This document shows positions 19,171-62,318 of a DNA stretch of 64,000 nucleotides, in pieces; within the stretch, counting starts at the first letter, position 1, and each line of letters begins with the position of its first letter. Source of the DNA: a virus (lineage: Duplodnaviria > Caudoviricetes). The notes beneath the pieces are model-generated. The model ran no database searches. It was not told the DNA's origin and worked only from the letters and a program-made list of their open reading frames with translations. Made by a program: the position numbers and the translations under genes. The stretch lies in IMG/VR virus record IMGVR_UViG_3300035425_000025, positions 10,103 to 74,102 of that record. One strand, 5' to 3'.

Positions 19171-19230
19171 ATCCCCTGAAGAGTCTTTGAAAATTAAGAC
19201 GAAACTACCCAAAACAAGGGTAGTCGGGAT
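19171..19230 (+). ncRNA. hammerhead ribozyme (type I)
   Basis: ATCCC/GGGAT stem I, CUGAAGA core, GTCTT/AAGAC stem II, GAAA, CTACCC/GGGTAG stem III, GUC cleavage triplet at 19223-19225. Confidence 0.85.
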
Positions 19231-22894: not shown

Positions 22895-23083
22895 GGAATA
22901 ACGCAATGAAAGGGATATTTAAAGGCAGATGGAAAATAAAACCGTCTGCCTTACTTGTTATAATGCAGCCTGAAAGCCTGATCAACTTTCAGACAGTCCA
23001 CAGTCTGTAAAATGCAGATGGTAACAAGAAAATAATAGAGAAATAGTTATTGCTACATAGACAATCAAAGAAAGGTTAAAACG

Positions 23084-23623
23084 GTGGAAATTATGTTAAG
23101 AATCTATTTAACAAACTTAGGCAAGTACAATGAAGGTCAGTTAATCGGTGAATGGGTAGAATTTCCATGTACAGATGATGAACTGGAAGAAGCTAAAGAA
23201 AGAATCGGGATCAGCGATGAACCAGACGAAAACGGAAACTATTATGAAGAGTGGTTTATTACAGATTATGAAACCGACATTCACGGCTTGACAGTTGGCG
23301 AGTATGACAATTTAGACGAATTAAACGAACTTGCGGAAACTTTAGACGATCTGGACGAGTACGAGCGAGAAATTGTAGAAGCTATGATTTCTGAAGGTTA
23401 TTCTTTAGAAGACGCAATCAACAAAAAAGAAGATTGTATGATTTATTATAACTGTGAAGATATGGAAGACGTGGCAAGAGAATATGTAGAGGAAACAGGA
23501 CTTCTTGATAGTATTCCAGAAAATCTGCAAAGTTATTTTGATTTTGAGGCATATGGGCGCGATATGAGTTTTGAAGGACATTTTGTATTTACTAATAAAG
23601 GAAATTGTGTGCAGATTTTATGA
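23084..23623 (+). CDS. ardA: antirestriction protein ArdA
   Basis: RIYLTNLGKYNEGQLIGEW...EEWFITDYE...YFDFEAYGRD; very acidic. Confidence 0.9.
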   Translation: MEIMLRIYLTNLGKYNEGQLIGEWVEFPCTDDELEEAKERIGISDEPDENGNYYEEWFITDYETDIHGLTVGEYDNLDELNELAETLDDLDEYEREIVEAMISEGYSLEDAINKKEDCMIYYNCEDMEDVAREYVEETGLLDSIPENLQSYFDFEAYGRDMSFEGHFVFTNKGNCVQIL

Positions 23624-50576: not shown

Positions 50577-50647
50577 AGGGGTATCGCCAAATGGTAAGGC
50601 ATAGGATTTTGGTTCCTATATTGCAGGTTCGAATCCTGCTACCCTTG
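50577..50647 (+). tRNA. trnQ: tRNA-Gln(TTG)
   Basis: AGGGGTA/TACCCTT, TAGGA-TTTTGGT-TCCTA, GCAGG-TTCGAAT-CCTGC. Confidence 0.85.
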
Positions 50648-50651
50648 CTGC

Positions 50652-50725
50652 GGATCATTAGTTCAGTTGGTTAGAGCAACTGGCTCATAACCAGTTGGTC
50701 ATCTGTTCAAGTCAGATACGATCCA
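50652..50725 (+). tRNA. tRNA with CAT anticodon, most like Ile2 (lysidine type)
   Basis: GGATCAT/ACGATCC, ACTGG-CTCATAA-CCAGT; overall resemblance to Firmicutes tRNA-Ile2 rather than elongator Met. Confidence 0.8.
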
Positions 50726-54346: not shown

Positions 54347-54458
54347 ATGAGTGATAAAAAGATGAAAAGAGATGATTTAGGGAAATCGTATGAAAACATT
54401 TTATGAGAAGATTCCTAATACAAGATTAATGAGAAGGAATATTTTAAGAATTGAGTAA
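54347..54458 (+). pseudogene. 5' remnant of a Thg1-like gene with 1-nt insertion
   Basis: MKRDDLG/NRMKTFYEKIPNTRLMRR across GGG-AAA-T; stop overlaps LAGLIDADG start. Confidence 0.65.
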
Positions 54459-55527
54459 AAGAATTATTTTGGACAAAAATGAGCTGCACCAAAAATATGT
54501 AGTGGAGAAATTATCACAAGCTAAAACTGCAAAATACTTTAATTGTTCTATTGACACTGTTGTAAGAAACTTAAAAGATTATGGGATAAAAGCTCATAAA
54601 CAAGGATCTTGGCGTGTTTCAAATAGAGTAGAATTGTCAGAATATCAAAGAAATAAGTTATGTGGTGCACTATTAGGCGATGGTAGTCTGATAAAGTGTA
54701 AGAACGGTATAAATGCACAGTTTACATATGTTTCAAAATCAAAGCAACATGTTGAGTTTGTATGTAAGGATTTTATAGATTATTCATATAAAGAGGGAAT
54801 AAGAAAGTATGAATATATTGATAAAAGAACAAAGAAGCAGTATTTACGGTATACGTTTAGAACGATTACAGATCAAGGATTTACTGCTGAATATTATAGG
54901 TGGTATAAAAATGGAATTAAGCATATTCCAGAAGATTTAATTTTAAATCCCTTAATATGTTTAATTTGGTATATAGGAGATGGTAGCATATGCAACTCTT
55001 CTAAAAATAATAGTCAATGTATAAAAATTGCCACTAATTGTTTTGATAAAAACGAGCAAGAAAGAATTTTACTTCCTCAATTATCTGATTTTGGTGCAAG
55101 ATTATGTAAGGCTGGCAAAAATAAATCAACTAACAAATATCAATATGCAATTTACATTCCTAAAAAGAAAATGGAACAGTTCTTTGAATTTATTGGAGAA
55201 TGTCCATTTCCTGATTATAAATATAAATGGGATTATAAAGAGAAATTTTATCCATCTTATGAAGATTATTATGAAGAATGGAAAAAGTTGTATTTAAATG
55301 GAATGGGTTACACGCATATTGCTAGATTATATGGAGCAGATAATACAACAGTTCTAAAATATTTAAGAAAAGTTGGAATATATAAGAGATTTGAGGGATA
55401 CAAGCAATTTTATAAGGAATGGGAAGATATGTTTATTTCTGGAATGAAATACTATGATATAGCCAAAAAATATAATTGCTGTTCTCAAACCGTATTACAT
55501 CATTTAAGACAAGTAAATTTATTTTAG
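54451..55527 (+). CDS. LAGLIDADG homing endonuclease with flanking HTH domains
   Basis: LCGALLGDGSL and IWYIGDGS motifs; KIATNCF. Confidence 0.85.
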   Translation: MSKRIILDKNELHQKYVVEKLSQAKTAKYFNCSIDTVVRNLKDYGIKAHKQGSWRVSNRVELSEYQRNKLCGALLGDGSLIKCKNGINAQFTYVSKSKQHVEFVCKDFIDYSYKEGIRKYEYIDKRTKKQYLRYTFRTITDQGFTAEYYRWYKNGIKHIPEDLILNPLICLIWYIGDGSICNSSKNNSQCIKIATNCFDKNEQERILLPQLSDFGARLCKAGKNKSTNKYQYAIYIPKKKMEQFFEFIGECPFPDYKYKWDYKEKFYPSYEDYYEEWKKLYLNGMGYTHIARLYGADNTTVLKYLRKVGIYKRFEGYKQFYKEWEDMFISGMKYYDIAKKYNCCSQTVLHHLRQVNLF

Positions 55528-55548: not shown

Positions 55549-56365
55549 ATGGACAATAGTAATATTGCAAAACGAATGAAAAAATATGAAGCAGTACATA
55601 AAAGTGTATTGATGAATCGTATGCCAGTCATCCTTCGTCTTTGACGGCAAGGCATTTCATACGTTCACCAGAGGATTTAAAAGACCATTTGATGATGTTC
55701 TTATTATGACAATGCAGGAAACAGCAAAATATCTCTGTGAAAATATTCAGGGATGTCAATTAGCGTATGTTCAATCGGACGAAATCTCTTTGTTGTTAAT
55801 TGATTACCAGAGATTTGAAACATCGGCATGGTTTGATTATGAAATGCAGAAAATGTGTAGTATTTCTGCAAGTATGGCAACTATGGCGTTCAATAAGATT
55901 TTCCGTGACATGGTAGGAGAATTGCACATTAAGGGATCGTTGGAAGAAGAGTATTCTTGCATTCTATATAGGGCAGCACAGAAAGGAGCCATGTTTGATG
56001 CCAGAGTCTTTAATATTCCAAAAGAAGAAACATGTAATTACTTCTATTGGCGACAACTTGACGCTTCTAGGAATAGTATTCAGATGGTAGGACAAGCAAA
56101 TTTCAGTCATAAGGAGTTACAGTTTAAATCTTGTAATGACATTCAGGATATGCTCATGACTCAGAAAGGTATTAATTGGAATGACTTTCCTACATATCAG
56201 AAGCGTGGGAGCTGCGTTTTAAAGGAAAATTATCTTGATGCCACACCAGAATCTACAGATTCAGAAACGATTAGAAACCGTTGGATCATTGATAAAAATA
56301 TTCCGATTTTTAAGGGTGAAAACAGAGAATATATTGAACGGTTTGTGAATGTAGGAGAGGAGTAG
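55549..56365 (+). pseudogene. thg1: tRNA-His guanylyltransferase (Thg1-like), +1 frameshift at 55639-55645 (CTT TGA C)
   Basis: PVILRL / DGKAFHTFTRGFKRPFD...YVQSDEISLL...AMFDARVF...YFYWRQLDASRNS; 271 aa if shifted. Confidence 0.85.
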
Positions 56366-56367
56366 TT

Positions 56368-57005
56368 ATGAGTCTTACAATGTTACAGTTTAAAGAAGTA
56401 GCGAAAGATATTTTGGATTTAGAAGAAAAGAAAAATCTGATACTTTCCAACTTTGAGGAATCAACATGTGAATTGTCTAAGTGTTTTCATTGGATTATGG
56501 AAGCAGAATTAGATGGTAGAAATCATACATGTCTTACTGTTGATACATGTCCAGAGTTATATGCAAAAGAATTAGAGAATATGGGATTTGTTATAGAAGA
56601 GCAAAGAAATGTTTTTGATACTCTTTGCGGATATGATATTAAATGGCGATGAAACTAACATTTTAAGTTGAGAAAGGATAAAAAATAATGGGAAGGTTAA
56701 AAGATTTTATTGGAGAATCAAACTCAGAAATAGTGAATCATCTCGTAAAAGCAGGTTTTAAATATGATACTTTTGTGTGTGGTGGCAATTATGGTTATCA
56801 AAAAGGATTTAAAGTAGATAGTGGGTTATATTACACATATATACATTGCGATTTAGAAAGTAGAAAATTAAATGTTTATAAGGAATATAATTGTGGTGGA
56901 GAAGTTGCATCATATAGTTGTGATATTCCTGATCGTTTGATAGAAAATGATGATGTTAATGAGTTCATTGAGTGGATTGATGAAGAAACAGAGTACTATT
57001 TATAA
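56368..57005 (+). other. two hypothetical genes (56368, 56688)
   Basis: ORF track; RBSs. Confidence 0.7.
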
Positions 57006-57009
57006 ATAA

Positions 57010-57530
57010 AAACAGTCGTTGGCGAAAGATAAACGCATTTAAGACAATAATATGCTCACGATAGGTAACGCTTACATAAAGGTAAGTATTCCGAGACAGG
57101 TAATCGGCTTCAGCATATGAAGTATCTGAACTGTGCATGAGTGCTGGAGGAGTGAAAGGCTCACCACGACTGAAAGATCAAAAACTTGTAGGTGGATATA
57201 ATGAAACCTTCTGAACGAATAATTTCGAGGGCACTGGCTGATTGTGCACGATCAGGGATTTACGGATGACCAGTGGTTGAGTTGTGGGAAGGCTTATTAA
57301 AAAATAAATGAGAAAGTATAGGCGGTACATCGTTGGTGATGAGTAATGCTGTCTATACCAGAAAATTATTGCTGGAGTGGGTAAGAGCATACAAGAACAC
57401 CTACCAGAGATTTCCGTTAAACTGACGGCGTGGCGGTGTGAGTATAAAAATATTTGTGTATGTATTTGCTGAAGCGGTACAGAAGAATATCCTATAGGTG
57501 AAATTCCTATAGCAGCTTTTATATAAGACA
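57010..57530 (+). ncRNA. candidate ~520-nt highly structured ncRNA
   Basis: GC-richer than flanks; nested stems (AGTCGT/ACGACT, CACTGG/CCAGTG, CTGAT/ATCAG, ATAGGCGGTA/TGCTGTCTAT, CTATAGG/CCTATAG); no credible ORF. Confidence 0.6.
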
Positions 57531-57559
57531 ATGAAAAATTCATTTTATGGAGATGAAAT

Positions 57560-57874
57560 ATGATTTTATTGTTAGGTAAAAATGATTTGGTAGAAAATTA
57601 TGCGGATTCTACATTACATATTGATATGAGAAACGATATTGTATATTACCCAAATAAAGAAACACATCATACAGAATTGTATAAATATGTCAATATTGCA
57701 AAAGAAGAAAAACCTCCTGTAATTACAACGCAGAATTTAGAAATGATAAATGTTTTATTAGATTCTGACTTAGATTTTTCTGTATATACAGTTTATGAAA
57801 ATAATAAAGTCAGAAAAATGTCAAAACAGGAAGCAATAAATGCAAGTAGGAATTTAGGAATAGAACTACGATGA
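57560..57874 (+). CDS. hypothetical protein
   Basis: ORF track. Confidence 0.65.
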   Translation: MILLLGKNDLVENYADSTLHIDMRNDIVYYPNKETHHTELYKYVNIAKEEKPPVITTQNLEMINVLLDSDLDFSVYTVYENNKVRKMSKQEAINASRNLGIELR

Positions 57875-61100: not shown

Positions 61101-62318
61101 ATAAAAGTAGAAAGGCGTGAGCAAATAATCATACGAAAGAATCATCCAAAATTCAAAGTTATAGATCAACAGTGTTTTCATTCTAAGAATCTTTACAATG
61201 AAGCAAATTATGAAATAAGACAGAAATTCATAAATAACGGAGAATATATATCATATAACAAAATGAATTTTGAATTTAAGACACACGAAAATTACAAACT
61301 TACATTCAGTCAACCAGCGAATTGTACTCTAAGAGTTTTAGATAAAAACTGGAAATCCTATTTCAGAGCAATAAAAGACTGGAAGAATAATCCGTCAAAA
61401 TATCTTGGTATGCCTAAGTTGCCAAAGTATTTAAAAAAGGACGGTAGGTTTCCTTGGATGATTCCCAATAATCAGTTGGTCTATGACTATGAAAAAGGAA
61501 CGGTTTATATCAGGAACAGATTACTTAATGATTATGAATGGAAATGTCGCTGCCTTGGCAGAATCATTCAAGTCAGATTTATTCCAAAAGGTTCCTGTTA
61601 TGTAATGGAAATTGTCTATGAAACAGAAGTTCCAGATGTAAAAACAGAAAGCAATCGCATAGCAAGTATTGATTTGGGTGTAGATAATCTTGTAACTATG
61701 ACAAATAATATCGGTTTGAATCCAATTATTATTAACGGCAAGGGAATCAAAAGTATCAATCAATACTATAACAAACGATTGGCGAAAGAAAAATCTTTAT
61801 TGAAAATACGTCATGGAAAAGACTGGTCTAAGAAACTGGATTCTATTACATTTAAAAGATATCAGAGGATCAAGAACTATATGCACAATGCAAGTGCTTG
61901 TGTAGTGAAGTGGTGTGCAGAAAATGATATTGACACTTTGGTAGTAGGCAAGAATAAGGAATGGAAACAGAGTATAGATATGGGTAAACAAAGCAATCAG
62001 AAGTTTGTGAGTATTCCTTATCAGATGTTGTTACAGCAACTCAAATATAAATGTGAAAATGTTGGAATTAAATATATTGAAACTGAGGAGAGTTATTCTT
62101 CAGGAACAAGTTTCTTAGATGGAGAAGAAACTATTAAACAGAATTACGATAAGTCAAGACGGATAGAAAGAGGGTTGTTTAGAAGTAACTCTGGATTGCT
62201 TATCAATAGTGATGTAAACGGATCATTACAAATTATGATGAAGGTATTCCCAAATGCGTTCAATGAGCGATATGGGATAGAGGGTGTTCTAACCCCTATA
62301 GTTATAAATGCAGCGTAA
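61101..62318 (+). mobile_element. tnpB: solo TnpB RNA-guided nuclease (IS200/IS605-type, no TnpA)
   Basis: SIDLGVDNL, LVVGKN...ETEESYSS, NSDVNGSLQI; frame open upstream to ATA 61101 after GGAGGTG. Confidence 0.9.

Follow-up and report, generated by a model that had tools for sequence, protein, structure and literature searches.

Positions 57013-57517 of the window (the whole 64-kb stretch of DNA analysed, which is a piece of a 74-kb IMG/VR virus record and has a GC content of 31%) form a + strand tandem array of three structured non-coding RNA modules. These modules, called here A, B and CD, can be inherited separately and belong to uncatalogued families. The array is more conserved than the genes around it, and its modules are found in several uncultured, AT-rich, Herelleviridae-like gut phages. 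The best overall explanation is that of a three-module array from which A and CD would be excised by the tRNA-processing enzymes of the host. We regard this explanation as a whole as probable, though by no means assured; its tRNA-mimicry and excision part, taken by itself, is less likely than not.

The gene-free tract

The array lies in the largest + strand gap within a block of + strand genes: the interval 57006-57559 includes zero + strand ORFs of at least 50 aa (coordinates of all features are collected in Table 1). A sequence-only reading of this DNA had described a GC-richer, ORF-free tract, occupying its own gene slot and bounded on the right by a junction motif. The composition is as described (GC 0.39-0.45 in the tract and about 0.28-0.31 in the flanks) and the palindrome on the right starts exactly at 57532. 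Freedom from ORFs holds for the + strand; the minus strand does carry an ORF of 121 aa (57178-57543), which we judge to be non-coding. The notion of a slot of its own has to be given up: the nearest palindrome on the left is at 56650, so the slot between the two also holds the 105-aa ORF.

The palindrome (TRAAW-N6-TTTYA) is found at 56650, 57532, 57872 and about 25 other gene junctions, and at the same junctions in related contigs. This class of motif is enriched in the window (44 strand-matches compared with 15.6 +/- 5.1 expected), and the copy at 57532 is kept after CD in L134, L133, L116, L125 and L111. It might serve as an operator bound by a protein, as a hairpin for processing or as a site for recombination.

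The neighbourhood includes a LAGLIDADG/HNH nuclease gene and a gene for a Thg1-like tRNA-His guanylyltransferase, whose closest cultured relatives (45-49% identity) are found in Fusobacterium phages and Herelleviridae-type Bacillus phages. ARAGORN identifies four tRNA genes in the window and Rfam agrees. The tRNA-Gln and tRNA-Met genes (50577-50725) are 3 nt apart, neither encodes CCA, and the outer acceptor-stem pairs of the tRNA-Met look imperfect. An IS605-type TnpB gene (61263-62318), with OrfB_IS605 and Cas12f1-like TNB domains, is located 3.7 kb downstream of the tract.

With Rfam 15 (cmscan, gathering thresholds) the whole window yields the four tRNAs and nothing else; there is no match for a hammerhead at 19171-19230 or a twister at 22954-23623. 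With permissive filters and E<=10, the sole match in the tract (search interval 56800-57750) is a sub-threshold pemK motif. At this level no covariance model for ROOL (RF03087), GOLLD (RF01998), OLE, group I (Intron_gpI) or group II introns, RNase P or tmRNA matches in the tract, and Rfam finds nothing on the homologous loci. ARAGORN is blank at 57000-57560 (its four tRNAs are elsewhere) and there is no match to RF00005. A blastn search of the tract against 50,697 phage records was also without a match. The earlier suggestion of a possible new class, made after failing to place this RNA by eye in a known family, holds as far as catalogues go: the tract is absent from Rfam and is new as a family.

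A number of other candidates were rejected. For an intron, the flanking ORFs vary between contigs and are not halves of one gene, and Rfam has no match. Motifs resembling RNase P RNA (GGUAAGAGC, GAGAAAGU and ACAGAA) were dropped because no RNase P model scores. A TnpB/IscB omega RNA was excluded, since the sole TnpB (PF01385 and PF07282) is 3.7 kb away and there is no HEARO/IS605-orfB RNA match. A retron reading was rejected as well.

The + frames of the tract have 12-17 stops each. All three stop codons are present in every one of these frames, so that reassignment of a stop codon gives no open frame and was ruled out. A 22-aa + strand ORF in module B is preceded by a good Shine-Dalgarno sequence (AGGUGGA...AUG at 57201); it was rejected as a gene because its start codon is ACG in L125 and a stop occurs at codon 2 in L124. 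Across the tract the antisense frame has just one stop in 190 codons and is thus more open than expected (P about 0.004 by simulation, given the composition). The composition of the 121-aa ORF in this frame is that of a translated pyrimidine-rich strand. Between module A of the window and that of L006 (94.6% identical), eight of nine substitutions fall at codon positions 1 or 2 of the antisense frame. This pattern, together with a missing RBS and the lack of a Pfam match or homologues, rules the ORF out as a gene.

Table 1. Features of the array, its surroundings and related loci (window coordinates unless a contig is given)
Feature	Position	Strand	Remarks
LAGLIDADG/HNH nuclease gene	54451-55527
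Thg1-like tRNA-His guanylyltransferase gene	55706-56365
Left partner palindrome	56650-56665		Nearest copy left of the tract
105-aa ORF	56688-57005	+	Left neighbour of the tract
Module A	57013-57172	+	Stem-closed multibranch RNA, 160 nt; 12 instances, covariation
P1, closing stem of A (AGTCGT/ACGACT)	57013-57019 with 57166-57172	+	Covarying
P2 of A	57022-57024 with 57034-57036	+	Conserved loop RAAGAUAWA
Conserved single strand of A, AAGACAAUAAU	57040-57050	+
3' hairpin of A, GG / AG-GAG-UGAAAGG-CUC-A / CC	57146-57165	+	Stacks on P1
Antisense 121-aa ORF	57178-57543	-	Spurious; not counted as part of the array
Module B	about 57181-57361	+	Series of hairpins, lacking its own closing stem; 8 instances (alignment A4)
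B helix CACTGG/CCAGTG around CTGAT/ATCAG	57232-57237 / 57270-57275	+
B long hairpin	57316-57327 / 57347-57358	+
Module CD	57370-57517	+	Stem-closed five-way junction RNA; 7 instances (alignments A5, A7)
CD closing stem, (U)GCUG / CAGC(U)	57370-57374 / 57513-57517	+
CD helix GUGGGU / ACCUAC	57377-57382 / 57399-57404	+
CD hairpin CCGUUA/UGACGG	57414-57428	+
CD long arm	57450-57490	+
CD 3' hairpin, CUAUAGG-UGAAAUU-CCUAUAG	57492-57512	+
U-rich tail, UUUAUAUAAGACAA	57518-57531	+	After the CD closing stem; kept in all CD homologues
Junction palindrome TGAAA-N6-TTTTA (here TGAAA-AATTCA-TTTTA)	57532-57547	none	Right border of the slot
104-aa ORF	start 57560		Right neighbour of the tract
Module X	L134:10062-10395, L133:4696-5038, L116:11682-12008		In the place of the window's 105-aa ORF
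133-aa family genes	L006:10900-11301, L124:1005-1406, L193:2501-2902, L189:3001-3408

Module combinations and distribution

Homologues were collected in four ways. Thg1 served as an anchor in IMG/VR, with blastn and nhmmer applied afterwards; IMG/VR and the JGI/ENA metagenomes were scanned for words; the neighbouring 133-aa gene family was used as a lead; and model R1 and nhmmer were run as searches. The complete array (A+B+CD) is present in the window and in L134, L133, L116 and L125. Only B+CD is found in L111 and L114, only a divergent A (A') with B in L124, and A or A' alone in L006, L193, L196, L197, L189 and L198/L199. The order is A, B, CD in every locus. The array of the window is 97-98.5% identical to those of L134, L133 and L116, while the flanking genes of these contigs are 67-91% identical. 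In L006, A is at the syntenic position after Thg1 but has different genes on both sides. L197 is a GC-richer phage, whose module A has a GC content of 54% and a shortened core.

The tract had been read from its sequence as a single ornate RNA of about 520 nt. In its extended form this explanation makes A, B and CD (and, in some phages, a further module, X) domains of one ROOL/GOLLD-like RNA of 520-870 nt, of which the shorter forms would be reduced versions. It would fit the invariant order and the nearly unchanged full array in five contigs, as well as module B, which has no closing stem and is never alone (it always adjoins A' or CD; CD is missing in L124, and A in L111 and L114). A joint fold also proposes a CUUGUA/UAUAAG stem closing B+CD, and GOLLD itself has one variable half. 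That stem, however, is broken in L114, no covarying pairing between modules was found and Rfam gives no ROOL or GOLLD match. Moreover, at least six contigs, belonging to several lineages, have A by itself, with its own closing stem kept by covariation, and CD is closed by its own stem. We therefore consider a single molecule quite unlikely. The separate occurrence of A, A'+B (in one contig) and B+CD (in two), together with the closing stems of A and CD, makes the tract a tandem array of modules of about 160-185 nt.

A further ORF-free, stem-closed module of about 300 nt (X, AAGTTGGC...GCCAACTT) is located directly upstream of A in L134, L133 and L116, where it is 100% identical; partial similarity is seen in L005:7303-7416 and in L125. 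As X replaces the 105-aa ORF in the first three contigs, the whole slot is non-coding there. The commonest gene immediately after A or A' encodes a 133-aa protein without a Pfam domain. It has 48 relatives, and most members of this family have no module upstream.

The distribution of the module families looks narrow, module A being the most widespread. Neither A paralogues nor, with model R2, a second copy of CD were found elsewhere in the window. Searches of 80 loci around Thg1 homologues and of 50 complete records of related phages, made with blastn, nhmmer, R1 and R2, gave L006 and L111 as the only true matches; the recurrent 17-25-nt matches in the Thg1-locus searches are chance matches in coding regions. 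Since the 50 related phage genomes with the same Thg1-like gene do not carry the modules, there is no obligatory tie to the adjacent tRNA-repair gene. The 105-aa and 104-aa flanking ORFs, used as anchors in IMG/VR, retrieved no relatives. A GTDB word scan over 185,579 species genomes turned up 13 matches, all due to chance, and neither a prophage nor a host copy, and a later IMG/VR word scan for CD added no member.

Structure and comparative support

Module A is represented by 12 instances (11 distinct), which score 76-197 bits with model R1. In an alignment fitted to the covariance model, 92.9% of the cells are paired and both sides have changed in a compensatory manner in 20 of 39 pairs. These pairing and covariation values were reached by none of 500 shuffles, and slid controls were 27-41% paired. 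Covariation in P1, P2 and the 3' hairpin is also observed in an unfitted MAFFT alignment. For example, the outer two pairs of P1 occur as CG, UA or UG and as GC, AU or GU, and P2 occurs as GCG/CGC, CGA/UCG or AUG/CAU. In the 3' hairpin, GC has changed to AU and AU to GC in four sequences each, and GC to CG in four. The invariant blocks (the P2 loop RAAGAUAWA, AAGACAAUAAU and the loop UGARA) are unpaired.

The evidence for B and CD is of the same kind but from closer sequences. In the B alignment 99% of cells are paired and there are 17 extra pair types, mostly G·U; the long hairpin includes one compensatory pair (G-C to A-U) and the internal loop GGAUUUACGGAUGA is invariant. In the CD alignment 98.8% of cells are paired, with two compensatory pairs, in the 3' hairpin (U-A to C-G) and in helix 4, and three wobble-only changes in GUGGGU/ACCUAC that keep the pairing. 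The covariation observed was reached in 53 of 500 shuffles for B and 80 of 500 for CD, weak statistics that reflect how little the sequences differ. Folding energy taken alone is a weak indicator (z = -1.76 for the whole tract on the + strand, -0.64 on the minus strand, and -1.3 to -2.15 per module). In L047, a related phage, a hairpin with the same loop as the 3' hairpin of CD, AGGUGUGG-UGAAAUU-CCACACCU, is found at 2325-2355, just upstream of two tRNA genes.

All of the nested helices noted in the sequence-only reading are present in the sequence, although two of them (TTCAG/CTGAA and CCGA/TCGG) fall outside the consensus folds, CTTCA/TGAAG being preferred. The others are backed by the comparative data. 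AGTCGT/ACGACT and the GAG-tgaaagg-CTC hairpin covary, CTATAGG/CCTATAG shows a compensatory change and ATAGGCGGTA/TGCTGTCTAT one compensatory pair. Comparative backing is also available for GCTTAC/GTAAGT, for CACTGG/CCAGTG enclosing CTGAT/ATCAG, and for CCGT/ACGG, which is invariant.

The structures pair in 95-99% of cells on the + strand and in 80-82% on the minus strand, and G·U pairs are frequent (31, 72 and 46 cells in A, B and CD). This identifies the + strand as the RNA strand. It also bears on the explanation that there is no functional RNA and that the tract is a decayed gene, a miniature DNA mobile element (with terminal inverted repeats as closing stems) or a DNA site such as an origin or recombination site. 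The closing stems are indeed short inverted repeats, the modules move between contexts within a mosaic, cassette-like region bounded by palindromes, and one antisense frame is unexpectedly open, as described above. Strand-specific G·U pairs, on the other hand, are not what inverted repeats in DNA or a site in double-stranded DNA would show. The internal helices covary, conservation of the tract exceeds that of its neighbouring genes, and neither protein similarity nor target-site duplications were found. We consider this explanation very improbable. The proposal that the tract encodes a conserved structured non-coding RNA is instead supported on the + strand by these sequence comparisons, in particular by the homologues collected and the covariation in module A.

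tRNA-like end stems and a proposed processing route

Modules A and CD have similar ends. In A, the 7 bp of P1 are followed by two G-C pairs, a 2-3 x 1 internal loop and three pairs capped by UGAAAGG (UGAGAAG in other lineages). In CD, a 5-bp closing stem (4 bp and a U·U in the window and L134) is followed by a 7-bp hairpin with the 7-nt loop UGAAAUU (UGAAAGC in L111). Both stacks are thus of 12 bp (7+2+3 and 5+7) and carry a 7-nt UGARANN cap, whose first and fifth positions are U and A as in the pentanucleotide T-loop pattern. Stack and loop are kept in all 12 A and all 7 CD instances through compensatory changes. In a tRNA the T-arm/acceptor stack, which RNase P measures, likewise spans 12 bp between the end and the T-loop (PMC4919913).

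A coaxial stack of about 12 bp with a T-loop-type cap, as expected of an acceptor/T-arm mimic, is therefore found in both modules, with two caveats: A has an internal loop, and the CD of the window ends in a U·U pair. That A and CD are tRNA-mimicking units is a possibility suggested by these predicted folds, and one that, taken by itself, we consider less likely than not. Against it, ARAGORN and the Rfam tRNA and tmRNA models are blank at the tract, the loop is UGARA rather than UUCRA, the stack of A is interrupted, and the outermost pair of CD is U·U in the window and L134.

The surroundings of the closing stems are also relevant. One unpaired base and a run of three to five U residues (N+U3-5) come after the closing stem when the module is the last before a gene (in L193, L196, L197, L198, L189 and every CD), but not where a further module follows (the window and L124). 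The tRNA genes of the phage do not encode CCA, which implies that the host must process CCA-less precursors; in Bacillus subtilis RNase Z does this by cleaving them 3' of the discriminator (PMC1874595). From the 12-bp stack, the T-loop-like cap, the placement of the U-runs and the CCA-less tRNAs we infer that A and CD would be units excised by RNase P and RNase Z. Co-transcription of the array with its + strand neighbours would be followed by cleavage, by RNase P on the 5' side of each closing stem and by RNase Z past the unpaired base on its 3' side, where the U-run begins. A and CD would then be released as stable small RNAs and B would be freed as the piece between or beside them. B has neither a closing stem nor a T-loop, which counts against processed modules. 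The RNAs released might be decoys or ligands for tRNA-recognising factors, or the modules might punctuate the polycistronic transcripts of the phage.

A broader version of this model would treat A and CD as new phage 'tRNA-mimic cassettes', that is, autonomous, shufflable RNA genes. Their 12-bp acceptor/T-like stem would attract the host's RNase P and RNase Z (and the CCA-adding enzyme, too, perhaps), so that an elaborate cargo domain is excised and stabilised; the RNAs would act on tRNA-directed factors of the host or the phage, such as defence nucleases that cleave tRNA and might be decoyed, or would punctuate polycistronic transcripts. We put this forward as a speculative proposal to which we give a rather low probability.

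The U-run after the closing stem could equally be a terminator tract. The U-rich tail after CD (57518-57531) may be a 3'-end or processing region, and a terminator scan flags the CD 3' hairpin (57492-57512) together with this tail. These points would suit a cis-acting role, in which A, and CD by analogy, would act either as a leader or attenuator, of a riboswitch-like or a protein- or tRNA-binding kind, or as a structured 3'-UTR/terminator, with P1 beside the U-run controlling read-through into the next gene or protecting the upstream mRNA. In the contigs with A only, the next same-strand ORF indeed follows the module at a distance of 20-45 nt, with N+U3-5 after P1, and the conserved unpaired AAGACAAUAAU and RAAGAUAWA resemble a ligand or protein pocket. 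The downstream genes, however, are unrelated to one another (a 133-aa soluble protein, membrane peptides of 32 and 54 aa, a zinc-ribbon protein, a 104-aa ORF or another RNA module); in the window it is B, and not a gene, that comes after A. No alternative (antiterminator) pairing was identified, and a stem that encloses some 150 nt makes a poor intrinsic terminator. We consider a cis-acting element unlikely, and membership of a riboswitch or leader class was not found on these same grounds. The array with its proposed excision of A and CD remains our preferred reading.

Comparison with known RNAs

By analogy, the tract resembles a tRNA gene array more closely than a single molecule of the ROOL/GOLLD type. 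It has in common with ROOL and GOLLD, to which the sequence-only reading had already likened it, that these are large, GC-enriched, ORF-free tracts with many helices in Firmicutes-type phages. They are, however, single molecules of 580-800 nt that assemble into cages (bioRxiv 10.1101/2024.12.08.627333), whereas the tract of the window consists of independently occurring units of 160-185 nt and has no match to either model at E<=10.

The closest analogues in kind are the T4 RNAC and RNAD and the long non-coding RNAs of phage K, and, for the tRNA-like end, mascRNA and tmRNA. RNAC and RNAD (species 1 and 2 RNAs) are small stable RNAs that map to the T4 tRNA region; they are about 120-140 nt long and their role is still obscure (PMC3014915, PMC9697503). 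They share with the modules of the window that they are phage-encoded non-coding small RNAs, those of T4 being made alongside tRNA genes. There is no sequence relation and the modules are 6.3 kb from the phage tRNA genes; as predicted RNAs they are also larger and more branched, and they form a combinable array. The T4 RNAs are cut from the tRNA-cluster precursor by host tRNA-processing enzymes. Phage K (Kayvirus, Herelleviridae) is a large AT-rich Firmicutes phage. Its lnc001 and lnc002 are abundant long non-coding intergenic RNAs beside tRNA genes, of obscure role (PMC9241854), for which no modules or structure have been described. Since the blastn search against the phage records was blank, there is no detectable homology to them.

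With mascRNA/menRNA and the tRNA-like domain of tmRNA, modules A and CD share a closing stem stacked on a T-loop-capped hairpin that has no anticodon function. The likeness is one of predicted fold: A and CD have no D/T-loop pair signature, no CCA and no match to a tRNA or tmRNA model. RNase P frees mascRNA from the longer transcript that contains it (PMC11693755). Compared with a tRNA, the modules have a multi-helix domain of about 110 nt in place of the D and anticodon arms. The pemK RNA motif (RF02913) has the terminal hairpin loop GGUGAAAUUCC (57497-57507) in common with the tract. This match concerns the last hairpin only and scores 17.5 bits (E=1.9) compared with a gathering score of 34.8, so the tract is not a member of this family.

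Structured RNAs of phages are largely unexplained: ROOL, GOLLD, the T4 RNAC and RNAD and the phage K RNAs are all without a known function. The locus described here adds at least two uncatalogued RNA families with comparative support, which for module A matches that of many Rfam motifs. It shows that phage RNAs can be modular, combinable units within a cassette-like accessory region of gut phages. The 12-bp stem and T-loop-type cap common to A and CD may connect these RNAs with the arms race over tRNAs in which phages and bacterial defence systems are engaged.
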